From: a phage
Assembly (NCBI GenBank): GCA_020773975.1
Contig: GCA_020773975.1_3638.1
Reading direction: 5' to 3' (one strand)
Length of the DNA: 64,000 nt
How positions within the stretch are numbered: the stretch's first letter is position 1; each line of letters opens with the position of its first letter. Made by a program: the position numbers and the translations under genes. Shown here in pieces: positions 3,175 through 47,651 of the stretch. The notes beneath the pieces were generated by a model, which worked only from the letters and a program-made list of their open reading frames with translations, was not told the origin of the DNA and ran no database searches.

Positions 3175-3521
3175 TCTCCATTTTTAATTTCCAGTATATC
3201 TACGCTCTCTGTTGGTACAAAGCCAACAACAGGCTTCATACATTTCTCTTTTACATTATCGAAGACATACATTTCATCCAATGCTTTTTGTGTTGTGCAC
3301 GATTCCCAGTTTTTTGTGTACTCTTTGTAGCCATCCTCGTAAAGGAGGAAGTAGTTAATAGTTGTTGCCCCAAGAATAACGAACATAACAAAAGAGACAA
3401 CAACGTGTTTCCATGTTCCTTTATACGATAAAATGAAAGCCCAAATAGAACACAACACATAAAACGATAAAGCAGGGAACCAGTTATTATGCACCTGTAC
3501 CCACTCTAAAAAAGACATCAT
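3165..3521 (-). CDS. membrane-anchored hypothetical protein
   Basis: N-terminal hydrophobic helices (FPALSFYVLCSIWAFILSY..., VVVSFVMFVILGATT). Confidence 0.5.
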   Translation of the reverse strand: MMSFLEWVQVHNNWFPALSFYVLCSIWAFILSYKGTWKHVVVSFVMFVILGATTINYFLLYEDGYKEYTKNWESCTTQKALDEMYVFDNVKEKCMKPVVGFVPTESVDILEIKNGDWT

Positions 3522-9326: not shown

Positions 9327-9644
9327 CATCAGTTCAGAGAGTTCGTTACGCTCTCCCGCACCATTACGTGCATAGCCACAAGATTTCTCCTGTGGGTCGG
9401 ACTATCTCATCCTCCTGATATTAAGGAGGCCTCCCGTTTCGACCGCACTTGCTGGCCTACTCTACTCGCTTTCACATTACTAGTGTGCTTTCGATAGTCT
9501 CTGAACGTTCATCCCATAGGGATGCTTCGCTGCGGATTAGCATATTGAACTTTTGCTACTTTTACGTATAAAAGCCAGCTTAGCCTTCCCGTCAATTAGA
9601 GAGGTTTTCGACATGCATTACTGCATGAAGCCACAATGTTATTT
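9327..9644 (-). ncRNA. putative self-splicing group I intron in the DNA polymerase gene (no ORF)
   Basis: 318 nt between codon His (9645-9647) and codon Asp (9324-9326); joining gives ...VIYYH|DEIQV in frame; 5' exon ends in U, insert ends in G; GUGG 11 nt into the insert can pair with exon CCAU giving a U-G wobble at the splice site. Confidence 0.5.
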
Positions 9645-12056
9645 ATGGTAGTAGATAACCCTCCTGACACCTTGGTCGTACCATCCCCATTTCACCAATT
9701 CCCAATGGAACAGGACTCCCATGAGGTCAAACAATGAAGCACCACCGTTTTGTTGGTAAGCATTCAGCAGAGAATGTTTAGAACGAGTCCAAATTTTACG
9801 CCCGTCCATGCCTGGAATATAGCGTCTCCCATTTGCCTCCCAGAATTTTTCCAACCACTCCCTACGCATTTTCAACCCGAAGTTACTATCCCAGAATGCA
9901 TCTATTACAGCCTGTGCTCTATTAAGGGGGATACCCAGCATTGCGGCTATCTTAGGAGCTTGTGCTCCATACATAATTCCATACGTAACCCCCTTTCCTC
10001 CAGAGCGTGTTACCTCCTTTCCTGCTGCTATTGTGTATGCTCTTGCGTTTCGTTCATGGGCATCCTCTTCCATCATGATACGTAAATACTCACCACCATC
10101 AAACTCAAAAGCCCCTGCCGCTGCAATCATACCTTCTAAGTTAGATCCATCACAACCCATCAGGTAGTAGCCTTCAGGGACTGTCCAAAGACCCCGCATT
10201 TCTTTTCCCAACAAAACCTTCGGATCAGGCTTGGGCATGTTTGCGCAAACAGTATGCTTGCACCTGCCCGTGTTAGTGATTCCAGAAAAACGTGCTGGAA
10301 GTTTTCCGTCAATGTCTAAACGAGGGTGATTTAATAACCCTGTATCCGTCTTATCCTCATCCATTGGGTCTAAAACAGATCGCCTGTTACGAAGTGATAG
10401 CCACTTAACAATCTGTTTTGCCATATGCACATCAATTTTCTCCAAATTTGGACACAGATGCCCAAAATTATCTTTTAATTGAGGAGATGTCGGTAACTGG
10501 CGTGCTTTACGCCGAAATTTCTTAAATATCTCTGAATAACCCCTTTCAGATGCATGGCGATGGTCAAACTTACGCTCTGAAATGTTGAATTTCTCATCTG
10601 AATCATTAAGGTAGTCAAGAATAAGAGATTTATACTCAGACTCTGCCAACTCTTCTATGTACTTCTTAACTAGTACATCAATTTCAGAATCTTCACGAGT
10701 CTTTTTAAATTGATCCTTAGTAACATCTTTTACGCGCCACAGTGTAGGTTTCCAACCAGCATCTTTGATCAAATATTTTTTAATATCATCCTGATTAGAG
10801 ATTTTCATTGGAACCATTAAATCTGGCATTTTTCTGTTTCGAAGGTCTTCTTTAGCCTTCTCTAGAAGATCCGGCGGTAAAGGTTCGAGTGTGTTCTCTT
10901 TGGTTCGCTGGGAACGAATGAAATCACCGTATAAAGCCGGATCTTCAATGCCATTCTGGATGCAATATCTCTCCCCTGCTGCACTTACATCCCCATTGCT
11001 CTTAAAAGCTGTTTTTGGTGGAGCTTTAAACTCCAGAGCTTCCCTGTTAACAGGATAGCCAAGTTTATATTCCAACCAATTCCACCCATGATGAGATATA
11101 TTACCCGCTGTGTCAAAAGGGTTAGCTGGGAATTTTGGTTGTTGAGATTTCGTCATCTCTTTTTTTGGAAGAAGTGGTTCTACCTCTTCTTCAATTTCTC
11201 GCATCATCTTATCTATGCGATCTCTTAATTTTTCTGCCTCCTCCCGATTAAAGTATACGCCTTGTATTTCTTGCTCTATCATCAAATAGTCTGTGAGCAT
11301 TCTCCTACGTAATGCATTTTTCCAATTAATCTGGTGCATCCCGTGAGGTTTATCAGTGTACATAAACTGCTTGTCATCAGGCCATCGCGTACCATTTGAC
11401 TCATCAATAAGAGCTTTCCACACAAGTTCGTTAATGATAACGTCTTCCCACACACGGTTTACATATTCCCACAATGGCTGATTACGCCAATCATCAATCT
11501 GCACTTTCTTGTTTGCTACACGATAACCCCATGCCAATAAGCCGTGTGGCCCAACCCTGTCACGTTTTCCTGTTACAGGGTTCAATACAGAATCTGGGCA
11601 GCCATTAGGCAATGGGCGATCTGGGTAAAGAACACGACTCATTGAAAGAGTGTCGTAAAGATTTACCTGTTTATTACCTATCGTCCCCATACATTTTAGG
11701 TCTTTGAACATGTCATATTCAATCCCAGAAAGTTTTTTCCACAGACGTAAATCATAGCCGAACAGGTTATGTATTGCTATCCCTCTTGGCTCGGTCTGCA
11801 ACCAAGAGTAAAAATCATCATAAGAAAGGATACGTAAATTAACACCTTCTTTGCTGCGTGCAAAATTAACTGCACTCTGGTATTCCTTGTGAGCAGGATC
11901 GAGAAACAACACCCAGTTATTTACAGCATATTCTTTAAAAAGTGTGCAGTGATATTTAGTTGCCTCTTCTAATAATCCGTCAGCTTCGTTATCTCCGACA
12001 AAAAGCCCTTTCATACTCCTCCTATTCAAGATGGGCTTGACTGTATCGTCGCCCAT
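9645..12056 (-). CDS. DNA polymerase, family A (T7 gp5-like), 5' exon
   Basis: N-terminal 3'-5' exo motif LFVGDNEADGLLEEATKYHC (T7 MIVSDIEANALLESVTKFHC as recalled); motif A GCDGSNLEGM; motif B RSGGKGVTYGIMYGA; ORF stops 2 codons after the expected motif-C His. Confidence 0.85.
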
Positions 12057-33539: not shown

Positions 33540-33740
33540 GATCAAATTAAACTAACTTATAAGATCTATTAAATATAATACTACGTATTATAATACTATG
33601 ATCTATTTAATATAATATATTATACTACGTATAATATAATTTAATATGATCTAATATAATATAATATAAATTATATAATATAATTTAATATAATACTACG
33701 TATTATATATTATAATATATATATTATATAAAATTTATTT
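33540..33740. repeat. AT-rich iteron region (candidate origin of replication)
   Basis: About 200 bp of roughly 90 percent A+T with three copies of GATCTA(T)TTAATATAATA and three copies of ACTACGTAT. Confidence 0.6.
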
Positions 33741-33750
33741 AAAATACACT

Positions 33751-37087: not shown

Positions 37088-37114
37088 TATGATATTTTAT
37101 CGCTGATATTTGTT

Positions 37115-37142
37115 TTCCCTGTGATATTTTTGTCACAGGGAA
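37115..37142 (+). other. perfect 10-bp hairpin
   Basis: TTCCCTGTGA-TATTTTTG-TCACAGGGAA directly after the preceding stop; no U-tract. Confidence 0.4.
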
Positions 37143-37359
37143 AGTTTCAACAACAGATATTTTCTTGATACTTTAAAACTCTACCAGAATTTAAAATTCT
37201 GTAAATTTAGAAAACTATTACTTATAAGCGTTTCGACACAATTTTGTTATGAAAGCCTTGTTTTTATATAAAAACCTGTTTTAGCATGAGTGGTAGGATC
37301 ACACTCCATACTACCTTTATTCCTACAGATGAGCACCTCCATGTCCGAAAACTCGGTTC

Positions 37360-37560
37360 TCGATCGAAAATTCATTTTCCAGATCGTATTTGCTCCTTAC
37401 GGAGAAAATTTTTTAGGGCTACAAATTTCAGTTCTCGATCAGTTTTTCGATTTCAAAATCGTATTTGTTTTTTCTTGCGAAAAATTTCGCACGCTCAGTT
37501 CTCGATCGAGTTTTCAAAATCGAAATCGTATTTGCTCTATAGCGCGAAAAAATTTTTATG
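37360..37560. repeat. three imperfect direct repeats of about 65 bp (GTTCTCGATC ... ATCGTATTTG ... GMGAAAAATTTTT)
   Basis: GTTCTCGATC begins at 37366, 37431 and 37498; each unit also contains ATCGTATTTG and an A-run/T-run; a fourth diverged copy is at 45983. Confidence 0.6.
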
Positions 37561-37909
37561 GGTATCATAATTCTATCACACACTTAAACGCAAAGCAACA
37601 TAAAAATTTTTGTTGAATGATAATCATTCTTATTTGCATAATGACAGGCAGGAGCGGTGTCTTATCCTCCCCCGTTGACCATCGTCGCCGTAGTTTGAAG
37701 TTTATAGCCGTTCTCGGCTTATATCTTTGTTAGATATAGATTAGCATAATTGATAAAGAAAGCAAGTTTTAGGCATAATCTTTACGTTTCTTTACAAATT
37801 TATTTTTGACGAGTTACCGGCGATCGACCTTCCAACCAGCGCCCTGATATGTTAGCCCCGCCTTTACGCCGTGGGGATGGCGTTTCCTCTTCTGTATGTG
37901 AAACATTAT

Positions 37910-37932
37910 AAGCCCGACCCCCGGGCTTGTCA
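37910..37932 (-). terminator. hairpin downstream of the minus-strand HTH gene
   Basis: AAGCCCG-GGGGT-CGGGCTT on the minus strand followed by a partly T-rich tract. Confidence 0.4.
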
Positions 37933-37939
37933 AACATTT

Positions 37940-38206
37940 TTATTGTTTATTTTCTTGCCAGGTTAGGACACCTAGCCAGAAATGGCAATCACCTTTCGCC
38001 CATTGTGGTATATTGCTTTCTTTCCCACCTTCCCGCGCCCAGGAATAACCGCCCGTGTAACTTTGCAATTGATAACTATCCTCGACCTTATAATCTGACA
38101 GGCTGAGAACTGTTTCTACCTTTAAGCCCGTTGCGCTCGCTACCTGGTGGATAGTTCCCCCTTGCCAGCCTAACGCGTGCATAAGGTGCAATGTGGTAGT
38201 GGTCAT
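37940..38206 (-). CDS. small HTH-containing protein, candidate transcriptional regulator
   Basis: 88 aa; GGTIHQVASATGLKVETVLSL resembles a helix-turn-helix; GAGGAA SD 9 nt upstream of ATG; the only minus-strand gene inside the plus block, divergent from the small-ORF cassette. Confidence 0.45.
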   Translation of the reverse strand: MTTTTLHLMHALGWQGGTIHQVASATGLKVETVLSLSDYKVEDSYQLQSYTGGYSWAREGGKESNIPQWAKGDCHFWLGVLTWQENKQ

Positions 38207-38235
38207 TTTTTCTATTCCTCTGTTAGTTGGCTAGT

Positions 38236-38285
38236 TGTTAAAATTATATCTATAACCAGCCAGGTTAGCAAGGCAAATAAAAGAG
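38236..38285 (-). promoter_or_regulatory. putative sigma70 promoter for the HTH gene
   Basis: Minus strand TTGCTA-17 nt-TATAAT. Confidence 0.4.
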
Positions 38286-38340
38286 AAAAATTTTTTAAAA
38301 ATAGTATTGACAGCGGGGGTAGTATAGATCTACTATGTGC
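38286..38340 (+). promoter_or_regulatory. sigma70-like promoter with AT-rich UP element (copy 1 of a duplicated 27-bp module)
   Basis: AAAAATTTTTTAAAAATAGTATTGACA (38286-38312), then TACTAT at 38331-38336 (18-nt spacer). Confidence 0.5.
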
Positions 38341-38391
38341 ACATCAAGGCGATACACCGCCACCAACCAACCTAAAAAGGGGTGAATTAAT

Positions 38392-38739
38392 ATGAAAACC
38401 ATCGTTAACGCTGAGAATGTATCTTTTGATAAGTTGAGCGACGCACAAAAAGAAAAAGCCATTGATCTTATTCGTGAGCGTGAAAGAGAAAGTAATAATG
38501 ATTTCTTTGCTGATAGTGTCATTGAAGACTATAAGAATGACATTTTGCCAGAGTACGGGATCGATGACGCGGTTATCTATTGGTCAGGATTCTGGTCGCA
38601 AGGCGACGGCGCATCAATCAGCACTGACCGCGTGGATATTGAAAAATTTTTAAGAAAAGTTAAATCTTTAACAAAATTCAGAGGGATCCGCAAACTATTT
38701 GATATTGATGAAGATGGAAAAGTTTACGCTATCGCTTAA
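38392..38739 (+). CDS. hypothetical protein
   Basis: AGGGGTGA SD; 115 aa acidic. Confidence 0.55.
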   Translation: MKTIVNAENVSFDKLSDAQKEKAIDLIRERERESNNDFFADSVIEDYKNDILPEYGIDDAVIYWSGFWSQGDGASISTDRVDIEKFLRKVKSLTKFRGIRKLFDIDEDGKVYAIA

Positions 38740-38779
38740 AAGTGCTTGCATTCAGTTTTAAAATAGGAGGTAAATAAAA

Positions 38780-39136
38780 ATGGCAATCAAGGCAATCATG
38801 TTAGAACTTACAGACTTCCGTAATACTGTAAAAAATTTAACCAAAAAACAGGTTGATAATATTATCAACGGATACCGTAGCAAGATTAAAGATCTTCCGC
38901 TTAAACGCGATCAACATGCGGCTAATATGATGCTTGACGCTATGATCAAAAAGATGATTCAGTGCGATCTTACTCTGGCTTATGAATACGCTGGCGATCT
39001 CTTTGTAACGTATAATAAGCCAGTGCCAGGCATGTGCACCACGGAAGAATTGCACGCCCTGAATCTAAAACAAGATGCATGGGATAATATGCGCCGCGTT
39101 ATGGTGTGGGCAGAAAGCGGTAAAATTTATCAATAA
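38780..39136 (+). CDS. hypothetical protein
   Basis: AGGAGGT SD. Confidence 0.55.
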   Translation: MAIKAIMLELTDFRNTVKNLTKKQVDNIINGYRSKIKDLPLKRDQHAANMMLDAMIKKMIQCDLTLAYEYAGDLFVTYNKPVPGMCTTEELHALNLKQDAWDNMRRVMVWAESGKIYQ

Positions 39137-39142
39137 AGATAG

Positions 39143-39189
39143 TTGTCTTTTAGTTATGCCGTGGTAGAATACACGGCATAGATAAGAGA
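39143..39189 (+). promoter_or_regulatory. promoter-palindrome module (type B, copy 1)
   Basis: -35 TTGTCT (39143-39148), 16-nt spacer, -10 TAGAAT (39165-39170); inverted repeat TATGCCGTG (39155-39163) / CACGGCATA (39172-39180) brackets the -10; followed by GATAAGAGA. Confidence 0.5.
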
Positions 39190-39212
39190 AACTACTTATC
39201 AGAGTTTAAAAG

Positions 39213-39431
39213 ATGAAAAATATTACGGGTAAAACCGAGCTATTAAAGGCGCTTTCTGTCGGTGAGTCAGCTTTATGGGTATGTGAAAAAGATCGCCTAC
39301 CGTCGCGTGAGATGGCCTTGTTTAAGGCTTTATCTTTGAAGCTGAAAATTAAATTATCCCAAAAATTAGCGGTTGTTGCCGCACCTGGGGAAACTGCTTT
39401 CAGTATCGTAATGGTTAAAAGGTTGGAGTAG
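39213..39431 (+). CDS. hypothetical protein
   Basis: 72-aa ORF downstream of the promoter module. Confidence 0.45.
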   Translation: MKNITGKTELLKALSVGESALWVCEKDRLPSREMALFKALSLKLKIKLSQKLAVVAAPGETAFSIVMVKRLE

Positions 39432-39449
39432 AAAAAATTAAAAATTATA

Positions 39450-39478
39450 TTGACAAGCAAAACAGCAAAAATTAAACT
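39450..39478 (+). promoter_or_regulatory. sigma70-like promoter
   Basis: TTGACA-17 nt-TAAACT with an A-rich upstream tract. Confidence 0.4.
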
Positions 39479-39516
39479 TACACACAGTTAAATAAACAAT
39501 ATTAACGAGGTAAATC

Positions 39517-39888
39517 ATGAAACAGTTAACCGCTTCCCAAAAAGCAATGATCCGTGAGTATGTTTTAAACTCTCTTTCTTTCGATATTGAATCGGGTAGC
39601 GAGCAAGAGCAGATCAAAGAATTAAAAAACCGATTTGAATCTGAATACTGGTACGATAGCAACAAGAAACGCTATCAAAATGATAAAGTACAAGGCCTCA
39701 AAAATTGGTTGCAAGGCTTGCCGAGTGGTGTTAATATCGATTTCACTTATTACGATATTGAGCAACGCCTTAAAGATCTTGGAATCATTACCGAGACGAC
39801 CAGAGAAAGCACTATTGAAAAATATATATCTGAGTGGTGGGATCTGGTAGCGCCGTTTTATGCTGGGCTAATCGTCAACTTAAAATAA
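39517..39888 (+). CDS. hypothetical protein
   Basis: GAGG SD; 123 aa. Confidence 0.55.
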   Translation: MKQLTASQKAMIREYVLNSLSFDIESGSEQEQIKELKNRFESEYWYDSNKKRYQNDKVQGLKNWLQGLPSGVNIDFTYYDIEQRLKDLGIITETTRESTIEKYISEWWDLVAPFYAGLIVNLK

Positions 39889-39923
39889 TTATTGCAAACT
39901 ATCTAAAACTGGTTTAAATTAAA

Positions 39924-39945
39924 GGGAGTGAGTTTAATCACTCCC
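39924..39945 (+). other. perfect 8-bp hairpin upstream of the next start codon
   Basis: GGGAGTGA-GTTTAA-TCACTCCC; the ORF-track GTG start at 39928 lies inside it. Confidence 0.45.
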
Positions 39946-39966
39946 AACATGAAAGAGGTTAATCAA

Positions 39967-40278
39967 ATGAATACTTATTTTTCTACTCGTTCACTTGCAC
40001 GCATTGCAGCGAAAGAAACAGGCGGTAAAGTTTTAGATAATGGCAAAGATGCGCCGATCGGTAAACGTTGGCAAGTTATCCCTGGCTATGTTATTGAAGC
40101 CGTCCAGGATACAGCAAAACAACGCGCTGAGATGGAAAATAAACCAGTAGTCACCTTGTCCATTGGTAAGCGTAGCAATGTAGCGAATCAAGCCCGTAAG
40201 GCGCTTTATTACGCCATCAATTACGCAAGAAATAATAAAACTGTTCCGCTTTATCATAAGCGTTCATTTAAGAAATAA
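39967..40278 (+). CDS. hypothetical protein
   Basis: ATG at 39967 preceded by AAGAGG. Confidence 0.5.
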   Translation: MNTYFSTRSLARIAAKETGGKVLDNGKDAPIGKRWQVIPGYVIEAVQDTAKQRAEMENKPVVTLSIGKRSNVANQARKALYYAINYARNNKTVPLYHKRSFKK

Positions 40279-40347
40279 TTTTTAATTAGATAAAAAGCGC
40301 CCTAAGAAATGGGCGCTAAACAAAAACACTTAAAGAGGTAAATTATT

Positions 40348-40698
40348 ATGGCTAGCATTGTAGAAATTTTCAAAAAAGCTGTTGAAAATAAAAACGCTGA
40401 GTTGTCTTTAACGTCTTTGAATTTTACTGATGCTTACGGTAATACTTATTTTGTTTATGAGCTTGGTTTTACTTGTCCTGAGTTAAAAACATGGGAAACG
40501 TTGCATAAATCTCGCGATCTGCAATATGGATATGGTGATCACGTTTTAACTGTTGCAATGAAAGACCTTTCAACTATTACCGGGGTAAAATCTGAGGCCG
40601 CATATATTACCCGTTGGGCGCATGACAACGGCTTAAAAATTAGTGTCAACAAGCGCACCAATTGCCGGAAAAAAGATTTAAAACAGTTTATCGCTTGA
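40348..40698 (+). CDS. hypothetical protein
   Basis: AAGAGG SD; preceded by hairpin AGCGCCC...GGGCGCT. Confidence 0.55.
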
Positions 40699-40723
40699 TC
40701 CTGTTAATCATCTTGGTGGTTGT

Positions 40724-41074
40724 ATGATCCAGTTTTATATAATCATCGCGGCGCTTGCAATTTACTTAGGATTGCACCAAAAAGTATTCAGGGTAATTCT
40801 TTGGTTTTATTACGAGTACAGGATCAGAATGGGTTATCACTATATCGAATACTCTTTCCACGGCGAGAGATACCACACAAGGAGATCCGGCCCATTAAAT
40901 GATCTTGAGGGAAACGGTTTAATCTGTGAGGTCAAAAAGCGGGGCGGGAAAATTCTTTACCACAAAGAGGGCACTTTTGATTATATTGATGAGGTGATTA
41001 ATTTTAGGCAACAAGCCGTAAAAGATCACGCCAGCAAAATAATCAACGGCAGCTATAAACGCAAAGCGGGGTAA
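40724..41074 (+). CDS. membrane-anchored hypothetical protein
   Basis: N-terminal TM (FYIIIAALAIYLGL). Confidence 0.5.
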   Translation: MIQFYIIIAALAIYLGLHQKVFRVILWFYYEYRIRMGYHYIEYSFHGERYHTRRSGPLNDLEGNGLICEVKKRGGKILYHKEGTFDYIDEVINFRQQAVKDHASKIINGSYKRKAG

Positions 41075-41075
41075 T

Positions 41076-41258
41076 ATGCGGAATTTTGAAAAAATTGTTA
41101 AAGCTAATCGCCTGGAATACGGGGAAACAGACGAAAAACGGGAACGGGTAGGCAAACGCCATAAACCTAAAAAGGTTCCTAAATTGTGGTGTCCTGATAA
41201 ATACGATCACAAATTAAAACAGCGTATCGCTGAGAAACAGCGATTAAACGCAAGATAA
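41076..41258 (+). CDS. small basic hypothetical protein
   Basis: 60 aa, Lys/Arg-rich. Confidence 0.4.
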   Translation: MRNFEKIVKANRLEYGETDEKRERVGKRHKPKKVPKLWCPDKYDHKLKQRIAEKQRLNAR

Positions 41259-41264
41259 CAGACA

Positions 41265-41290
41265 AGGCCGGAACTATCCGGCCTTTTTAA
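41265..41290 (+). terminator. rho-independent terminator
   Basis: AGGCCGGA-ACTA-TCCGGCCT followed by TTTTTAA. Confidence 0.7.
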
Positions 41291-41371
41291 TGCCTGGTGG
41301 CGTTCAGAACGATTAAAACTATTAAAGATGGTCCGATGTACCACAAAATAAAATAGCTCGTTAGAGAGTGT

Positions 41372-41394
41372 TTTAGAGGCCTTAAAATCGATCC
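41372..41394 (+). promoter_or_regulatory. conserved 23-nt motif (copy 1) downstream of a terminator
   Basis: TTTAGAGGCCTTAAAATCGATCC; second copy TTTAGGCCGCTTAAAATCGATCC at 44842-44864. Confidence 0.45.
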
Positions 41395-41415
41395 TAAAAA
41401 TATCTATAAAAATGC

Positions 41416-41444
41416 TTGCAATGCTTTCCCGCTATCGTTATAGT
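41416..41444 (+). promoter_or_regulatory. sigma70-like promoter
   Basis: TTGCAA-17 nt-TATAGT. Confidence 0.45.
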
Positions 41445-41653
41445 GTTCCCAACAAGCAAGCAAACGAGGTTAACGGCAATGATTGAGATTCTTAAAAATC
41501 CTATTTTGTGTGGTATGGTTGTTTCTGTGTCACTTCCGATCGTGCTGTTAGTCGTTAGCGAAATAGATGATTTTATCTTTAATAAAAGACTTGCCAACAA
41601 GTCAAAAACAAATTAATATAGTATCAGCATACTAACTAGCGAGGTGATTTAAT

Positions 41654-41872
41654 ATGTTTGGTTTTATTGTTCTATCTTGTTCTCTTCCTGTCACTGCTGC
41701 AAAGGTAGAATGTAACTACACTGTAAAAGAGACTTTTAATGATGAAAAGTCTTGCAATGTATACGAAAATAATTATAAACTAGGAGACGGGGAGCAGTTC
41801 GGGATCTGTGATGAATTAAAGGACGGTATGAAGAAAGGCGATAAGCGCCCGATCCTGGTCCTGAAAAAATAA
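41654..41872 (+). CDS. small secreted protein
   Basis: Signal peptide-like MFGFIVLSCSLPVTAAK; GAGGTGA SD. Confidence 0.5.
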   Translation: MFGFIVLSCSLPVTAAKVECNYTVKETFNDEKSCNVYENNYKLGDGEQFGICDELKDGMKKGDKRPILVLKK

Positions 41873-41913
41873 TTTTTCTAATCATGTTGATCAATTCTTA
41901 AGAGGTGAATAAA

Positions 41914-42201
41914 ATGTTTGAAGTTTTCGCGGGTATGTGTTTTTATACAGCTTTGGCAGTTCGCCAATGTGATGATTATATCGTTGAATCATACGATGAT
42001 CAGTTGACTTGCGAAATAGTCGCTAATGACTACGGCAAAAAAGATCGCTGGATTAATCCGGCTTGCATACCATCCCCAGAGGTAGAAGCCATGCCGGAAG
42101 GGGAAGAGGTATCAAATCCAGTTGTAGCAGTATCCTCCTTTTTCGTTGACAACCTGGACGCCCAAGAATTGATCAACATGTATGTAAAAAATCAAAAATA
42201 A
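41914..42201 (+). CDS. hypothetical protein
   Basis: ATG at 41914 preceded by AAGAGGTGA; the ORF-track start at 41905 is GTG. Confidence 0.5.
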   Translation: MFEVFAGMCFYTALAVRQCDDYIVESYDDQLTCEIVANDYGKKDRWINPACIPSPEVEAMPEGEEVSNPVVAVSSFFVDNLDAQELINMYVKNQK

Positions 42202-42204
42202 CGC

Positions 42205-42240
42205 TTGACGTTGATTTGTGCCACCTTATAATAGGTGGCA
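42205..42240 (+). promoter_or_regulatory. promoter-palindrome module (type C)
   Basis: -35 TTGACG (42205-42210), -10 TATAAT (42227-42232) sitting exactly between the arms TGCCACCT (42219-42226) and AGGTGGCA (42233-42240). Confidence 0.5.
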
Positions 42241-42291
42241 TAGGTAAGCGAAAGCGGATCTAAGTCTTAAACAAGGTAAGAGAGGTAAATC

Positions 42292-42612
42292 ATGGAACAA
42301 GCTAATAAATTTTTCTTCCTGGCTGGGATCGTGGATAATGTGAAATGTGATTTCAAGCGTGAAAATGATAAGACGTTACTCACTTTCTGCGATATGCTTG
42401 ATCATGAGAATGCCGACAAGTTACGAATCGAGATCCGCACGATAACCAATATCGACAATTCAAGCCGTTTAATTTATAAATCTCATTCGATAGCTTACAG
42501 CTTGGAAACATCAACAAGCTGCATACAACAAGGTGAGAGCTTGCCCATTCTAAATAGTGCCGATGTATTTGGCGCGGTTGTTGCAATTGTAAATGATGTT
42601 TTTTCTCGTTGA
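42292..42612 (+). CDS. hypothetical protein
   Basis: AGAGAGG SD. Confidence 0.5.
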   Translation: MEQANKFFFLAGIVDNVKCDFKRENDKTLLTFCDMLDHENADKLRIEIRTITNIDNSSRLIYKSHSIAYSLETSTSCIQQGESLPILNSADVFGAVVAIVNDVFSR

Positions 42613-42729
42613 TTGGTGTTAATATTATGTTAGAGAATATCGTGTTTTGGTGTGGTGTCGTTATCGCTGTTATGGTTGGCATCCTGGCGACGATGGCGAA
42701 CATTGTGATCTCAAACAACCTGGCAGGGT

Positions 42730-42778
42730 AAAAATTTTTTAAAAATAGTATTGACATACTGGCGGCATATGGTATCAT
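42730..42778 (+). promoter_or_regulatory. sigma70-like promoter with AT-rich UP element (copy 2 of the duplicated 27-bp module)
   Basis: AAAAATTTTTTAAAAATAGTATTGACA (42730-42756), identical to 38286-38312, then TATCAT. Confidence 0.5.
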
Positions 42779-42910
42779 TTACCACATGAAGGGGCGAGAT
42801 TGACTTGCCTCACTAACGAAAGGTAAATAATGATGAACATTTCTAAAACTACTTTTAACTTTGCTAAAAAGCGTGGAATTTAGCTTGAGCTAGTCGAAGC
42901 AGATGATCGC

Positions 42911-43099
42911 TTGCTCCTGGCTTTTTATGAAGCTAAAAACGAATGTGAGTGGATGTTCTCTTATAATGTTAATCATGATTGCCTAACCTGGCGCGGAAAT
43001 ATCTATCTTTCAAACGAAGTGAAAGAGGAATTACCCGCCACGATCACGACTGAGAAAAAACTACGTGAGGTTATTGACTTCATCTCTAAAAGTATCTAA
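42911..43099 (+). CDS. hypothetical protein
   Basis: 62-aa ORF. Confidence 0.4.
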   Translation: MLLAFYEAKNECEWMFSYNVNHDCLTWRGNIYLSNEVKEELPATITTEKKLREVIDFISKSI

Positions 43100-43145
43100 G
43101 ATTACAGGGAAAGGGGCAAAAGCCCCCTACCGCAGAAGGTATAAA

Positions 43146-43370
43146 ATGGATAAATTAACAAAGATTGAACATGAAGTTATGGATCTTGCAAGGGCTAATA
43201 GGCCATTTGACAAGATTTTCTCTAAGGAGAATAAAGAGATCTTGAAAGATCTAACGCAAGGTCAAAAAGACGGCTTGCGCCGCTTATATCGTGAGGCGTA
43301 TGACTATTTTCGCTGGTGGGAAATAGAAGAGGCTAACGCGAAAATAGAAGGCCTAGAAAATTTAGTATAA
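43146..43370 (+). CDS. hypothetical protein
   Basis: ATG at 43146 preceded by GAAGGT; the ORF-track ORF 43065-43370 starts further upstream. Confidence 0.45.
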   Translation: MDKLTKIEHEVMDLARANRPFDKIFSKENKEILKDLTQGQKDGLRRLYREAYDYFRWWEIEEANAKIEGLENLV

Positions 43371-43376
43371 AAGTAG

Positions 43377-43423
43377 TTGACTTTTACTTATGCCGTGATA
43401 GAATGCACGGCATAGATAAGAGA
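43377..43423 (+). promoter_or_regulatory. promoter-palindrome module (type B, copy 2)
   Basis: -35 TTGACT (43377-43382), 16-nt spacer, -10 TAGAAT (43399-43404); arms TATGCCGTG (43389-43397) / CACGGCATA (43406-43414); followed by GATAAGAGA as in copy 1. Confidence 0.5.
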
Positions 43424-43465
43424 GACGGCACAAGCCATTGATTAAACTTAAAGAGGTAAATTATC

Positions 43466-43867
43466 ATGAATACTTACAAAACTGTTTTTAATTTCGACAA
43501 CTTCAAAGCTATCTGTGACGATCAGATCGGTAAGTGCCGTAAAGAAAAAGGATTCTATAAATCTTATAAATTGATTGCGGTTGTTGATGAAGAGATCACC
43601 GAAGTGGCAACGCTCAACCTGTACCACACCAACGCTACTAATTACGCTTGCCTGTGGATGCACTGGACCAATATTAAAGGTTGGGATCATGGCTATGTTG
43701 GCGGGAAAGCAAGCGGATACGGTTACGACAGGGAGGAGGCCGCGATCCATGTCGTAGCTAATAAGCTCGGTATTACTGGCAACTGGTTTAAAGGTGAGCA
43801 ATTGCTAGATGCGATGGCACGCCATTTTGATATGAAAGGCGCAAAGGTTATAACTTGCAACGCGTGA
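43466..43867 (+). CDS. hypothetical protein
   Basis: AAGAGG SD; 133 aa. Confidence 0.55.
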   Translation: MNTYKTVFNFDNFKAICDDQIGKCRKEKGFYKSYKLIAVVDEEITEVATLNLYHTNATNYACLWMHWTNIKGWDHGYVGGKASGYGYDREEAAIHVVANKLGITGNWFKGEQLLDAMARHFDMKGAKVITCNA

Positions 43868-43914
43868 TCATTCAATAGCGGGGAATATTCCCCGCTTATA
43901 GATAGGGCATAATC

Positions 43915-44166
43915 ATGATTTACGATCTTAAATATTACGACGAATTGAGCATTACAGCACAATTAACCGCCCGTGTCAATATTATAGCAGACCTTGAGAA
44001 TCACCACAGAAAGCGCATAGTCCAGACTATCGCAAGTTTTAAAAATAATCCTCATAAAGTGATTAATGACACGAAGCACATTCAACGCCTCAGAAACGGC
44101 GCAAAGGCGCTTTATAGTGTACAAGTTTTAACGAGATCGCCCCGCGTTTTGACTGGTCGAGCTTAA
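43915..44166 (+). CDS. hypothetical protein
   Basis: 83-aa ORF. Confidence 0.45.
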   Translation: MIYDLKYYDELSITAQLTARVNIIADLENHHRKRIVQTIASFKNNPHKVINDTKHIQRLRNGAKALYSVQVLTRSPRVLTGRA

Positions 44167-44241
44167 AAACAATAGTTTAAAATTAATTTAGTTATTGATA
44201 AAATCTTATATAAAACTTTAATCTAAAAGGGGTGAATTAAT

Positions 44242-44442
44242 ATGAAACGTTTTACCTATGGTGTTGTTGGTGGTTATGTTTCAAACCGGTTTTACAATAC
44301 CGAGCGTGGTGCTAAAAATGCGGCTACCCGTGGATATGGCAATAGTGCAAATTTACAAGTTGGCTACATTAGCAAAATTAGCGGTATGTTTATTCCGGTT
44401 GCTCAACGCGGCATGTATTGCATAAACTGGATGCCAATGTAA
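44242..44442 (+). CDS. hypothetical protein
   Basis: AAGGGGTGA SD. Confidence 0.45.
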   Translation: MKRFTYGVVGGYVSNRFYNTERGAKNAATRGYGNSANLQVGYISKISGMFIPVAQRGMYCINWMPM

Positions 44443-44457
44443 AAAGGAGTAATAAAA

Positions 44458-44649
44458 ATGGATGTATCACAAGTTAGAAAGGTATTAGCAGCGTTACGCT
44501 ATCACAATTATAGCAAGGTGAAGAATGATCCTGATTATGTTGATTCCAGCTTGGAGGAAGACACCTTGCAAGCTATAAGCCATATGCAGGAATTGCTTAA
44601 GCGTATGACAGAGAAGAACAGATCTGATTATATAGGTGAAGAGATTTAA
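44458..44649 (+). CDS. hypothetical protein
   Basis: AAGGAG SD; last ORF of the cassette. Confidence 0.45.
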   Translation: MDVSQVRKVLAALRYHNYSKVKNDPDYVDSSLEEDTLQAISHMQELLKRMTEKNRSDYIGEEI

Positions 44650-44682
44650 TCTCTTACAACCGCACAAAGTAAAATTGTACAA

Positions 44683-44709
44683 GGGGCGCATTAAGCGCCC
44701 TTTATTTTT
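44683..44709 (+). terminator. rho-independent terminator closing the small-ORF cassette
   Basis: GGGCGC-ATTAA-GCGCCC followed by TTTATTTTT. Confidence 0.7.
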
Positions 44710-44911
44710 GCCCTAACAAGCATGATAAGTTTTATCTATCAAAACACCACACAGAAAAAAGTGAATAAAACGCGGTATCGAGCTAAACGAGGGTAGGCAG
44801 TACAACGGCAAGGGTAAACAATTAAGGCCGTTATAACGCGATTTAGGCCGCTTAAAATCGATCCCCATCACGAACAACCCCCATAATCTGACCAAAACGA
44901 CACAACATGAC

Positions 44912-45000
44912 TTAAATGATAACCATTCTCAACAACATAAGAATTTTTATGCAATTTTAGTGAATATCTATTTAAATGATAATGACTCTCAACAACAAAA
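44912..45000. repeat. two direct repeats of about 29 bp
   Basis: TTAAATGATAACCATTCTCAACAACATAA (44912-44940) and TTTAAATGATAATGACTCTCAACAACAAAA (44971-45000). Confidence 0.55.
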
Positions 45001-45092
45001 TAACACGACCGAAGCGATTTAATCGCCTATCACAAAACAAATCAATTGTAAAGAACAATTTAAAAGCTGCGTAAGTGGCGCGACCGTAGGGA

Positions 45093-45320
45093 GCGACACA
45101 ATAACGCAGTAGTAACCCCTCCCCCTCACTCCTTACAGTCGCCCGGTATCGGGATAGCGTTATTATGTCGCTACGCGCCAACGCGTTAACAATTTTGCAA
45201 AGAAGCCTGCTTTGCAGGTTAAGCGCATTGCGCTTAATCGCGTAGCGACTATGTGAAATTATAACAGTTAAATTATTAATAAAATCTTGCAAAATTGTTA
45301 ACCTACTGCGTTATTGTGTC
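45093..45320. repeat. nested inverted-repeat element (18-bp perfect terminal inverted repeats around about 190 bp)
   Basis: GACACAATAACGCAGTAG (45095-45112) is the exact reverse complement of CTACTGCGTTATTGTGTC (45303-45320); inside, GTCGCTACGCG / CGCGTAGCGAC plus the palindromes ACGCGT, GTTAAC, CCTGC...GCAGG, AAGCGCATTGCGCTT. Confidence 0.6.
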
Positions 45321-45433
45321 CTGTATATAATTCGTTAAATTAACCAAATTAATCCCCGATTATTACGCAGTAAATCACCTGCTTTTAACCCTGTTAATGT
45401 GCCACGTAGTGATCTGCTATCTTGCCCAGGGAT

Positions 45434-45452
45434 AACCGCATGGCATGCGGTT
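45434..45452. repeat. perfect 9-bp-arm palindrome
   Basis: AACCGCATG-G-CATGCGGTT. Confidence 0.55.
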
Positions 45453-45530
45453 AAATGCTGTTAAGTGCTTGAAATGCCAGATCAATTTGGTCACTGCGTG
45501 ATTATGATTGCGACAATAATTTGCTATTTA

Positions 45531-45560
45531 TTTGTTATAATTTGTTATAATTTGTTAAAC
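45531..45560. repeat. tandem 10-mer repeat (3 copies)
   Basis: TTTGTTATAA TTTGTTATAA TTTGTTAAAC. Confidence 0.6.
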
Positions 45561-45659
45561 ACTCTTTTATCTTTTCTCTTACATTTTCGTTATATTTGAT
45601 TTGTTATCGTTTTCCCTCATTTCGCTTCGTTATTGAAAACAAGAATTATTATCATTGAT

Positions 45660-45960
45660 ACGCCTTAACAGGCTGGCGGGTCTGTTAGTGGTCTGGCTCT
45701 CTGTGTGGTCATGTTGTTATTGGTTGTGATAGCTTGGTTTTATTGTCTGGCCTGTTATTGTTAGCTTGCTTATTGTTGTGTGGTGTATGTATTAGTTAGC
45801 TAGTACATTAGCTGGTGCGCATAACGTGTATTATGTTAAATCAGGTGGCCCACAAGTAAGGTGGCTTGTCAATAACAATAAGTGCTATGTGCGGTAGTCT
45901 GGCCCATCAGTGTGCCCCTTTGTTGTGTGGTGCTCTCAGTGTGTGACCTGTCTGCTGTGT
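45660..45960 (+). other. strand-biased G+T-rich non-coding tract
   Basis: Top strand almost devoid of A and C runs; recurring TGTGTGG/CTCTGTGTGG; ends with a diverged fourth copy of the GTTCTCGATC repeat at 45983. Confidence 0.5.
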
Positions 45961-46190
45961 GCGCTGCGCCAAATCTCGAGCGGTTCTCGATCACAATAGC
46001 TGTAGGATATTTTCAAAACATCCGAATTTCCATCGACACCCCCAGCTCATCTGCCTGTCACCTCTGAGATAAAGCTGTAGATATTTTCACTCCTCACATC
46101 ATGCACAAGTTAATACATGCAAGTCTTTACAGACAGGGGTGGGTGGTGTAAAATACCTGTGCCAACAGTACAAAACACAGAGGAGGTTTA

Positions 46191-47651
46191 GTGGCAAAAC
46201 AGTTCTTTGACAAACATTACATGGAAACGCATTTTGTAGAGAAACCTCTGCATCGCCTGAACTTTACAGATTTAGAAGGAATGAGGTTTGGCAAGATAAC
46301 GGTGCACAAACTTAACAGAAGAGAGGATAAGTCTTTTGTGTGGTGGTGTACGTGTGATTGTAACCCATCCAGATATTTTATGGTTGTGCCTTACTCACTT
46401 AAAACAGGGGTGACAACATCTTGTGGTTGCAATTATAAAACTAATGGAGGGAATATACATGAAACACTCCAAGAGTTTCAAAAGAAAGTTGGTGGTGATT
46501 GGGAGATTATCTCATACCAAGGTAGAAAGCACGATTGTGTTGCCAAATGTACTATGTGTGGGAGTATTGTCACCAAACAAGGTGGCTCATTTATCTGCGG
46601 TGTGACGTGCCATTGCACTGATAAAAGAATAAAGAGGCGTGATGATATTTTGCATCTTGCGGGGTACAGTCTGATCAAAGAAGAGAAAGTTCAACAGCAG
46701 AATGGTGAATATATAATGCACTTGCGCTGTAAATCTTGTGGTGTTAAGAAACTGACGCGAAACACGGAGTTAAGGGATTTAAAGCCATGCCTGTGTAGAG
46801 GCGACCACACCAACAATGGGAAACCTTGCGCCATTTACCTGCTTTCACATAAAGATGGTAAGTATTGTAAGATTGGTAGGTCTTATAGCCCCTCCTCAAG
46901 ATTACGTATGATTAATGGTTCTGGTGGCGACTTTATATTGGAGCATGTTTGGTGGACACCTAACTATCACTACGCATCTGTGCTGGAGACAACACTCCAC
47001 AGGGAATTTTCTGAGCATCGCTTTGACGCTGGTGGTTTCGATGGGAGCACAGAGTGTTTCTACATAAAGCCTGACAAATTGGCAAAAGGAATATCTGAGA
47101 TAGTCGCCAAGTTGGTTGGGGATTACAAACCTGAAGATGGGGTGTTGACAAAAGATGTGAAGATAAGGAATAACTACAAGAACAGCGGTATGATTGTGAA
47201 GTCTAGGAGTTATCACTTCAAAGAGTCAGATGTGTGTTTGTGGATACCTTATAAAGGGTATCTCAGAAAGAAGAGATCCCCATTCTCCTCTTGGGAGATG
47301 GCAGAAGAGTGTCACTATTTAGCTGCAAATGTGCAGCCTTCCAAAAACTTAGATAGGTTTAAAATTTATGATGTGGATGGGGTTACTGACTCCATAGCAG
47401 GTTGGTCAAGGAGAACTGGAATCCCTGCTCAGACACTTACGTGGAGAATGCAACGCACAGGCATGACAATGAAAGAGGCGATTAATTATTGCAGACCAGA
47501 CACTGTTATTTGGTGTGGCGGGAAAATGGTTAAGAAGAGAGATCTTAAAAGCATTATCGGTGTTTCTTGGGAGTCGGTTTATACAGCATCCAGAAAAAGC
47601 AAGAAGTCCCCAGAACATATTATAGAAGAAATACTGAAAAGGGCCACTTAA
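46191..47651 (+). CDS. T5orf172 (GIY-YIG superfamily)-like protein with N-terminal Cys-rich Zn-finger repeats and C-terminal HTH-like module
   Basis: GTG start 4 nt after AGGAGG; core AIYLLSHKDGKYCKIGRSYSPSSRLRMING ... EHVWW ... ETTLHREF ... GSTECFYI; several CxxC/CxC clusters upstream; C-terminal GVTDSIAGWSRRTGIPAQTLTWRMQRTGMTMKEAI. Confidence 0.55.
   Translation: MAKQFFDKHYMETHFVEKPLHRLNFTDLEGMRFGKITVHKLNRREDKSFVWWCTCDCNPSRYFMVVPYSLKTGVTTSCGCNYKTNGGNIHETLQEFQKKVGGDWEIISYQGRKHDCVAKCTMCGSIVTKQGGSFICGVTCHCTDKRIKRRDDILHLAGYSLIKEEKVQQQNGEYIMHLRCKSCGVKKLTRNTELRDLKPCLCRGDHTNNGKPCAIYLLSHKDGKYCKIGRSYSPSSRLRMINGSGGDFILEHVWWTPNYHYASVLETTLHREFSEHRFDAGGFDGSTECFYIKPDKLAKGISEIVAKLVGDYKPEDGVLTKDVKIRNNYKNSGMIVKSRSYHFKESDVCLWIPYKGYLRKKRSPFSSWEMAEECHYLAANVQPSKNLDRFKIYDVDGVTDSIAGWSRRTGIPAQTLTWRMQRTGMTMKEAINYCRPDTVIWCGGKMVKKRDLKSIIGVSWESVYTASRKSKKSPEHIIEEILKRAT

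Follow-up and report, generated by a model that had tools for sequence, protein, structure and literature searches.

Three conserved direct-repeat units in the control region of Vequintavirinae phages form a probable protein-binding array

The 64,000-nucleotide (nt) stretch of phage DNA analysed here (contig GCA_020773975.1_3638.1 of NCBI GenBank assembly GCA_020773975.1; below, the window) carries a non-coding array of three direct-repeat units at positions 37352-37566. The window belongs to a V5-like myovirus (subfamily Vequintavirinae, genus Avunavirus), and its segment 37000-38300 is 94-95% identical to the Escherichia phages Av-05 and vB_EcoM_TH18 (TH18). The three-unit array is real and strongly conserved. 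As far as found, it is apparently undescribed; a literature search returned no description of it. The array was studied from sequence alone, with all positions numbered in the window, and it probably works as protein-bound DNA.

The array was delimited by a repeat search, a profile search (nhmmer) and blastn matches between genera. The repeat search found three 63-nt copies at 37352-37414, 37427-37489 and 37494-37556, with 67-75% mutual identity and spacings of 75 and 67 nt; Tandem Repeats Finder, run on the window, did not report them. A preliminary description of this DNA had listed three direct repeats of ~65 base pairs (bp) at 37366, 37431 and 37498. The repeats stand, but the first one starts at 37356, a slip of 10 nt. 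Each unit has a plus-strand core composed of two boxes. In unit 1 (core 37355-37392), box A GGTTCTCGATCG at 37355-37366 is separated by an A/T spacer from box B ATCGTATTTG at 37383-37392. Unit 2 (core 37430-37467) has box A AGTTCTCGATCA at 37430-37441, a T-tract and box B ATCGTATTTG at 37458-37467. Unit 3 (core 37497-37534) has box A AGTTCTCGATCG at 37497-37508, a T-tract and box B ATCGTATTTG at 37525-37534, and past its core lies GAAAAAATTTTT at 37545-37556. The plus strand of the window has four exact copies of GTTCTCGATC, at 37356, 37431, 37498 and 45983. As described earlier, the three units have a second motif and an A-run/T-run in common: ATCGTATTTG lies 27 nt past the start of GTTCTCGATC in every unit and is followed by a short variable stretch closing in the tract. 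GATC is present four times in the 215-bp array, against 0.8 expected from its window-wide density.

Alignment of 35 distinct units required no gaps over a 38-nt core with invariant positions, giving the consensus GG(T)TCTCGATCG-a-nTTTTC-aatTTC-nAaAtCGTATTt. Box A GGTTCTCGATCG and box B ATCGTATTT are held at a fixed 28-nt offset with the T-tract between them. Neither box is palindromic, the two are not inverted copies of one another, and all units are arranged head-to-tail in one orientation. The remainder of the unit is variable, reading TTTTTC...GAAAAAATTTTT in most genera and being GC-rich in Certrevirus. Despite the differing spacer sequences, the centre-to-centre distances between units are kept at 74-78 and 63-71 bp.

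Searched by blastn, the segment 37280-37640 gave matches in 87 phage records. Outside Avunavirus the match begins at 37347, exactly at unit 1, and spans the array. The array DNA is ~74% identical to that of Klebsiella phages (Mydovirus) and of Salmonella, Cronobacter and Escherichia phages (Seunavirus), and the matches are shorter in Certrevirus and Henunavirus. Related phages are 97.5-97.8% identical across the array region, the stretches between the units included. A search profile built from the three units of the window detected exactly three syntenic units in all 14 examined genomes of Avuna-, Mydo-, Seuna-, Certre- and Henunavirus, with E-values between 1e-8 and 1e-16 for Mydovirus and Seunavirus and less significant ones for the more distant genera. 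Two Vequintavirus genomes have three units at the syntenic place, as shown by the repeat search in the rV5-like CP057073.1 and by the profile in ECP2309. Thus, all six Vequintavirinae genera sampled hold exactly three units. The complete TH18 genome (133,882 bp) contains three units and no other profile match with E<1, and four IMG/VR contigs have three units each by the profile. A scan of IMG/VR with a 14-base gapped pattern returned mostly chance matches, with true units at five loci only. The preliminary description had proposed a search of related genomes for the repeat unit; the three-unit array was present at the same place in every relative examined, and the comparison went against the fourth copy.

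At every fetched locus the array lies in an intergenic gap of ~0.8-1.2 kilobases (kb), with a conserved gene for a protein of ~275 amino acids (aa) upstream and a block of small plus-strand open reading frames (ORFs) downstream. The neighbouring protein, of 274 aa in the window, is 15-39% identical between genera. Compared with the ~74% DNA identity of the array, this shows that the array is much better conserved than the adjoining gene. The boxes are altered in Henunavirus and Vequintavirus (ACTTGAGrGG, AATGGATTT, GTACTCGATCTG, AATGGATTTT), and the change is found in all three units of a genome. Such a simultaneous change is the pattern that co-evolution with a lineage-specific binder would be expected to produce. 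In Phapecoctavirus, which belongs to another subfamily, these units are absent and unrelated repeats occupy the analogous position; past those repeats, the palindromes and the conserved downstream element are as in the Vequintavirinae. Vequintavirus, Mydovirus and Seunavirus also have, ~200 bp upstream of the array, a cluster of box-B-like elements that stand alone (AAAATGGATTT, GAAATGGTTTT; at 1935-2030 of fetched locus L136 from CP057073.1, 2785-2830 of L003 and 2780-2830 of L004). A blastn search of the array against 5,426 E. coli genomes found no similarity. A host or plasmid origin of the array was rejected, as there is no E. coli match and the sole notable plasmid match, CP057073.1, is the rV5-like genome.

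The array does not code for protein. Two plus-strand ORFs were proposed across it (37286-37570 and 37290-37616); the frame starting at 37286 gives a low-complexity peptide broken by stops, so that the earlier view of the ORFs within 37286-37616 as spurious is borne out. The units follow one another at 74-78 and 63-71 nt, distances that differ from genus to genus and are not multiples of three; no reading frame is therefore preserved, and the frame-breaking spacings together with the stops rule out a coding ORF. Nor was a structured RNA detected. RNAalifold gave zero consensus pairs in either sense, on the cores or on whole units. The only plausible helix, between CGATCG of box A and GATCG of box B, has 65.7% of its cells paired with little covariation, and it is broken in one third of the units without compensation. 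The folding energy of the array is not unusual (z = -0.95 and -1.7). Rfam searches returned nothing at the gathering score and noise only at permissive thresholds; two TYMV_upPK matches (E=0.65 and 1.1) were dismissed as chance matches to AGUUCUCGAUC...AUCG. ARAGORN found no tRNA, the likeness of box A to a T-arm being without a stem. No promoter or terminator belonging to individual units was found, and no terminator after the array. With no pairs, no covariation, no Rfam family and no promoter or terminator per unit, the small-RNA units considered in the preliminary description are not supported. The array does not have the properties of a type III toxin-antitoxin RNA array either, given its unit length of 63-78 nt and the lack of a terminator and of a toxin gene. 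Identity with the pseudo-ToxI of phage PhiTE was rejected, since that element has repeats of 36 nt and is found at another locus. A mini-CRISPR array was likewise rejected: the units are 67-75% identical, the "spacers" are conserved between relatives and a common A6T6 motif is present.

Promoters around the array were called as consensus matches, with a scan over ten genomes. The leftward promoter P1 (37905-37933, minus strand) matches TTGACA-17-TATAAT at 12 of 12 positions and is present in all ten genomes. P1 would drive a non-coding element of ~110 nt (37790-37900, minus strand), which is highly conserved across the Vequintavirinae and to 80-90% in Phapecoctavirus, and which matched no Rfam family. 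A terminator-like hairpin of the plus strand (37866-37883) overlaps this element, so that both sense and antisense RNAs are possible there. A direct repeat GTAAA-N5-GTAAA (37781-37795, minus strand), a consensus of the CpxR type, is located directly upstream of the leftward promoter P2 in KB57, SSE121, CR8 and GAP31 (position 3417 of fetched locus L003, 3377 of L004, 3338 of L005 and 1906 of L009). Two Henunavirus genomes have a promoter at the P2-equivalent place and no GTAAA box. A candidate third leftward promoter, P3 (37570-37598, minus strand; TTGCTT-17-TAGAAT), was read by eye and has its predicted start at the right edge of unit 3; its homologues in SSE121, GAP31, KB57 and SNUABM01 pass the promoter scan. 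No minus-strand ORF longer than 51 aa was found downstream of P1-P3. Leftward transcription would thus meet the array without an evident gene to express.

P2 faces a rightward promoter that bears a palindrome. In the window this promoter (TTGAAT-18-CATAAT, 37613-37644, plus strand) has in its spacer the 9-1-9 palindrome AATGATAATCATTCTTATT, which is closely similar to Fur boxes such as that at iucA. The general form, TTGAAT-18-(c/t)AgAAT with the palindrome AATGAgAATCATTCTCATT, is found past unit 3 in every genus in one to four copies. A repeat search and a mismatch scan located two further Fur-box-like palindromes at the far end of the small-ORF block (44912-44943 and 44972-45003, plus strand) and an inverted fourth one at 45634-45656 (minus strand), inside the putative terminal repeat described below. 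Copies with at most four mismatches occur in the window only at 37616, 44915, 44975 and 45638, and KPP-1 and ECP2309 also have copies in or beside the end repeat. It is the palindrome family, not GTTCTCGATC, that brackets the block. Adjacent to this region, an 88-aa ORF at 37940-38206 (minus strand, phrog_19316) has a helix-turn-helix-like N terminus (GGTIHQVASATGLKVETV) and is a possible regulator of the control region; its DNA is 80-90% identical in Phapecoctavirus, and shorter versions are present in Mydovirus and Seunavirus.

With neither a reading frame nor an RNA fold preserved, and with no covariation or Rfam family, the array is best read as a set of cis-acting protein-binding sites. 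The invariant boxes, the fixed geometry and copy number, the single locus per genome and the change of all copies within the same lineage argue for this reading. Of the roles suggested earlier, iterons for a phage DNA-binding protein fit best with these fixed boxes, spacings and orientation and with the one array of three copies that changes lineage-wide, but the 38-nt core is unlike that of classical iterons. In the mechanism that we propose, the units would be three composite sites recognised by a sequence-specific protein, which is probably encoded by the phage. The array lies 8.7-12.9 kb from one chromosome end, in a large non-coding control region that bounds the early small-ORF block on its inner side. 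The predicted leftward sigma-70 promoters P1 and P2 and the candidate P3 would read into it. The leftward RNA, or the unwinding that these promoters cause, together with the box-bound protein, could then open the A/T-tract-rich DNA to the T7-like primase-helicase and polymerase of the phage. An origin role is favoured because the conserved leftward promoters, predicted as sigma-70 type, point into the array, and the minus strand has no gene downstream of them. The primary origin of T7 has a comparable layout, with tandem strong promoters directed into A/T-rich non-coding DNA where the early region has its inner limit. The relatives encode a primase/helicase and a DNA polymerase; the rV5 helicase has been described as T7 gp4-like, and in that study the origin was not located by skew analysis (PMC3606486). 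The combined proposal of a protein-docking array that serves as a transcription-activated replication origin is put forward tentatively, and the assignment of the array as a replication origin is possible but doubtful.

Several observations weigh against this proposal. No recognisable initiator gene lies by the array. The 274-aa neighbour is an acidic protein (pI 4.4-5.3) in which no basic residue is invariant; its PHROG has no known function, and Pfam shows neither a DNA-binding nor a Rep domain in it. A homologue search with this protein found close relatives only. Being acidic, very divergent and devoid of an invariant basic residue and of a DNA-binding domain, it is unlikely to be the binder. 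The ORFs of the early block, as candidates for the binder, have no informative Pfam or PHROG annotation, and the searches brought up no other candidate. A 38-nt core repeated at 63-78 bp is unlike the 17-22 bp of classical iterons. A6T6-type tracts are found in the spacers of most genera, but the spacers of Certrevirus are GC-rich, so that an A/T-rich unwinding element is not universal, and GATC is missing from the Henunavirus units. The GC skew of the window changes with the direction of transcription and does not point to an origin, as was also the case in PMC3606486. Finally, P2 and P3 of the window itself are below the threshold of the scan, and all promoters are consensus matches only.

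The "cassette" downstream of the array is a conserved early-gene block by the chromosome end, present and syntenic in every genus, whose ORFs belong to established phage families of unknown function (PHROG/Pfam). A study of Certrevirus took the small-ORF block, with its dense sigma-70 promoters, to be the probable early region (PMC7344957). A direct terminal repeat of 514 bp has been reported for KPP-1 (PMC9862379), the record of Klebsiella phage DP has an annotated repeat_region at 1-514, and the first 459 bases of Vequintavirus ECP2309 are the same as its last 459. In these three genomes the order is the end repeat, the early block transcribed toward the end, the palindromic promoter(s) and the array, which lies ~8.9 kb from the chromosome end in KPP-1, 10.7 kb in DP and 12.9 kb in ECP2309. 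From alignment to the repeat ends of DP and KPP-1, we infer a direct terminal repeat of ~0.5 kb in the window at about 45556-46060. This placement would put the array ~8.7 kb from the end. However, older papers describe rV5, PhiTE and CB7 as circularly permuted, which conflicts with a terminal repeat. A HIDEN-SEQ preprint reports that in Bas54 an intergenic region of ~2 kb between oppositely transcribed genes tolerates no transposon insertions; by the layout of ECP2309, this stretch may correspond to the region of the end repeat and not to the array.

The putative terminal repeat contains a dif-like site. The layout of a Xer site, with an 11-nt XerC arm, a 6-8-nt centre and an 11-nt XerD arm, is present at 45814-45841 (plus strand) as GGTGCGCATAA-CGTGTA-TTATGTTAAAT, and this is the sole stretch common to the right-hand non-coding region of the window and Mydovirus. 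As a query, the site was found at one place per chromosome in 5,423 of the 5,426 E. coli genomes. In the E. coli example that was fetched, it adjoins hipA and reads GGTGCGCATAA-TGTATA-TTATGTTAAAT, which is dif. Both 11-nt arms are thus identical between phage and host, and the centre differs at two of six positions. The site is found in 246 phage records from all Vequintavirinae genera, within the terminal repeat, where its centre reads CGTGTA, CGTGTT or TGGGTA according to genus and, among the phage sites aligned, never the host TGTATA. XerC/D could recombine the two end copies, circularising the incoming DNA or resolving multimers, and the mismatched centre would disfavour exchange with the host site. 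A literature search found no link between Xer or dif and the Vequintavirinae, and the dif-like site in these phages is apparently undescribed. CP057073.1, a 137.5-kb rV5-like phage genome, was filed as a circular "plasmid" of an E. coli isolate from cattle; this may point to a carrier state or to persistence as an episome, a point of interest in view of the dif-like site.

Other roles of the array were weighed against the binding-site reading. The phi29 protein p4 switches early expression through multiple A-tract sites, and a phage regulator on the three sites could similarly form a nucleoprotein complex over the face-to-face promoters and time the exit from early expression. The end of the array is at a conserved distance of ~115 bp upstream of the palindromic promoter in four genera, the convergent promoters are conserved, and the region is the entry to an early block with many sigma-70 promoters (PMC7344957). 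However, each small early operon has its own promoter (PMC7344957), so that one array would be unable to control the whole block. The distance to the palindromic promoter differs in Certrevirus and Vequintavirus, and no regulator was identified; the 88-aa helix-turn-helix-like protein is present in the array-less Phapecoctavirus and is not annotated in the array-bearing CR8, Hena1 and the rV5-like genome. Such a switch seems unlikely. By analogy with the injection stop signal of T5, the array could instead pause DNA entry: the end with the early block would enter first, the DNA would stall at the array, and the rest would follow after the early proteins or be pulled in by leftward transcription. 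The position of the array 8.7-12.9 kb from the end (6-9% of the genome), with the intervening early block transcribed toward that end, is in line with this, and in T5 the conserved non-coding repeat regions that mark the inner limit of the first-step-transfer DNA (7.9%) are better conserved than the ORFs (10.1101/866236). However, no DnaA boxes (TTWTNCACA) occur in 37090-38390 or 44650-46190, and their window-wide count is that expected by chance. The terminal repeat is ~0.5 kb, not 10 kb, with the array outside it, circular permutation was reported in the older papers, and two-step entry is unreported for V5-like phages; a pause signal is accordingly given a low probability. An RNA containing the repeats and transcribed from P3, P2 or P1 could act through its primary sequence as a sponge, a decoy or an antitoxin-like RNA. 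The leftward promoters do end in non-coding DNA, and the relative PhiTE uses a repeat RNA as a decoy (PMC3475682). This role is nevertheless very doubtful in view of the missing fold and covariation in either sense, the lack of an Rfam match above noise and of a terminator past the array, the other locus and 36-nt repeats of pseudo-ToxI, and the lack of blastn similarity to any of the 5,426 E. coli genomes.

The preliminary description had also proposed a diverged fourth copy at 45983 and, with the array on the other side, boundary or recombination sites of a mobile cassette. An exact 12-mer common to unit 1 does lie 8.6 kb downstream, past the block. However, the site is a solitary box-A-like 12-13-mer (45981-45993, plus strand) without a box B, ~70 bp inside the putative terminal repeat. 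The match is limited to 12 nt, CGGTTCTCGATC at 45981-45992, and the profile covers only positions 3-17 (E=5.7). Five exact 12-mer matches were seen between the array and the rest of the window against ~1.5 expected, and two of the five are plain A/T runs. At the homologous position the box is kept in Av-05 (GCGGTTCTCGATCGC) and altered in TH18 (GGGGACTCGATCGC), Mydovirus reads GGACCGGATCGAC, and the solitary box A is absent from both Mydovirus and Vequintavirus. The site may be a solitary box A limited to Avunavirus, of borderline statistical support, and the claim of a fourth copy is not upheld. A mobile cassette is extremely improbable, because the far copy is a 12-nt box of one genus, the block is syntenic in every genus with genes of established phage families, and its right border is the putative terminal repeat. 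The TCGATC core had been linked to a post-terminator motif. Indeed, the exact 14-mer CTTAAAATCGATCC occurs twice, at 41381-41394 and 44851-44864, each time just past a hairpin ending an early operon; TCGATC itself is not enriched in the window (20 seen against 17.6 expected), and the motif has no link to the array. Repeated, possibly bent sites are typical targets of small terminases, and P1 pac has clustered GATC. The units are repeated and possibly bent, with clustered GATC, as in a pac or cos recognition site for terminase. Yet the ends of the packaged DNA are 8.7-12.9 kb away at a variable distance, and the terminase genes of TH18 are ~16 kb from the array, which leaves such a role with hardly any likelihood.

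Several other features were noted in and around the early block. A 486-aa T5orf172/MUG113 protein with an HNH-like C terminus is encoded at 46191-47651 (plus strand), directly after the putative terminal repeat; TH18 and Av-05 have no such gene here, which makes a recent homing-endonuclease insertion probable. The non-coding DNA before the putative terminal repeat contains a perfect inverted repeat with arms of 18 nt (45095-45112 and 45303-45320) separated by 190 nt. The motif (T)GATATTT occurs four times at 37088-37170, just past the 274-aa gene and around a hairpin at 37117-37140. GATATTTT is found at 46004-46013 and 46078-46088, within or beside the putative terminal repeat, and the GATATTT motif is also present in both non-coding regions of KPP-1. 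Within the block, modules of early promoter and ribosome-binding site are duplicated: 38286-38312 and 42730-42756 are identical over 27 nt comprising an UP element plus the -35 box, 39112-39192 resembles 43346-43426 (81 nt, 79%), and 38375-38397 is identical to 44225-44247 (23 nt). These duplications suggest modular shuffling of early operons. Elsewhere in the window, a group I intron (Rfam RF00028, 81 bits) is located at 9379-9654 on the minus strand, and an extremely A/T-rich tandem-repeat tract (33573-33745; TAATA and related 34-44-nt units) occupies an ORF-free gap in a plus-strand block.

Taken together, the array and the terminal repeat might delimit a "terminal early module". The early end would enter first, the array would be a stop-or-go point and/or an origin, XerC/D would circularise the DNA through the dif-like sites, and Fur (possibly CpxR) sites would gate the module. 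This integrated scheme is speculative and quite improbable as a whole; if true, it would give a large lytic myovirus a mode of establishing infection hitherto undescribed in such phages. A functional dif-like site would link a lytic myovirus to the chromosome-dimer resolution machinery of its host. Collections for therapy and biocontrol make wide use of V5-like phages. The array is a single short cis element with a fixed copy number throughout the subfamily and stands out against its fast-evolving neighbours, which makes it a precise target for origin mapping, for pull-downs and for deletions. Despite its "empty" look, the intergenic DNA of the array is unlikely to be safe for engineered insertions.

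Comparison with known systems places the probable protein-binding array closest to, and yet apart from, several repeat-bearing control elements. Like the iterons of lambda ori, P1 oriR and P4 ori/crr, it consists of head-to-tail copies of a conserved recognition sequence at one non-coding locus per genome, with GATC and, in most genera, A/T tracts nearby, and its sequence shifts by lineage whereas the architecture stays. At least three direct repeats in the same orientation, as expected of iterons, were found in every genome examined. In contrast to iterons of 17-22 bp in helical phase, the array has a 38-nt core of two boxes 63-78 bp apart, and no recognisable Rep-type initiator gene lies beside it. 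The resemblance to the T7 primary origin comprises the T7-like replisome of the relatives and the predicted tandem promoters directed into A/T-tract-rich non-coding DNA just inside the early region. However, the predicted promoters at the array are of the host sigma-70 type, the conserved boxes are not needed by T7, and Certrevirus lacks A/T-rich spacers. The injection stop signal or Repeat Region 3 of T5 (10.1101/866236) likewise consists of non-coding repeats that border, on the inner side, a terminal block of small early genes whose transcription runs toward the end; it is more conserved than the ORFs and T5 includes 66-bp direct repeats. Unlike it, the array has no DnaA boxes and no inverted-repeat partner and lies outside a terminal repeat of 459-514 bp. 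With the phi29 p4 sites and other multi-operator switches the array has in common several A-tract sites between opposed promoters (predicted ones in the array) at an early/late control region, but its boxes have no dyad symmetry, the spacing and copy number differ and no p4-like gene is known. Pseudo-ToxI of PhiTE is also a tandem non-coding intergenic repeat from the same subfamily, whereas the array has units of 63-78 nt and a copy number fixed at three.

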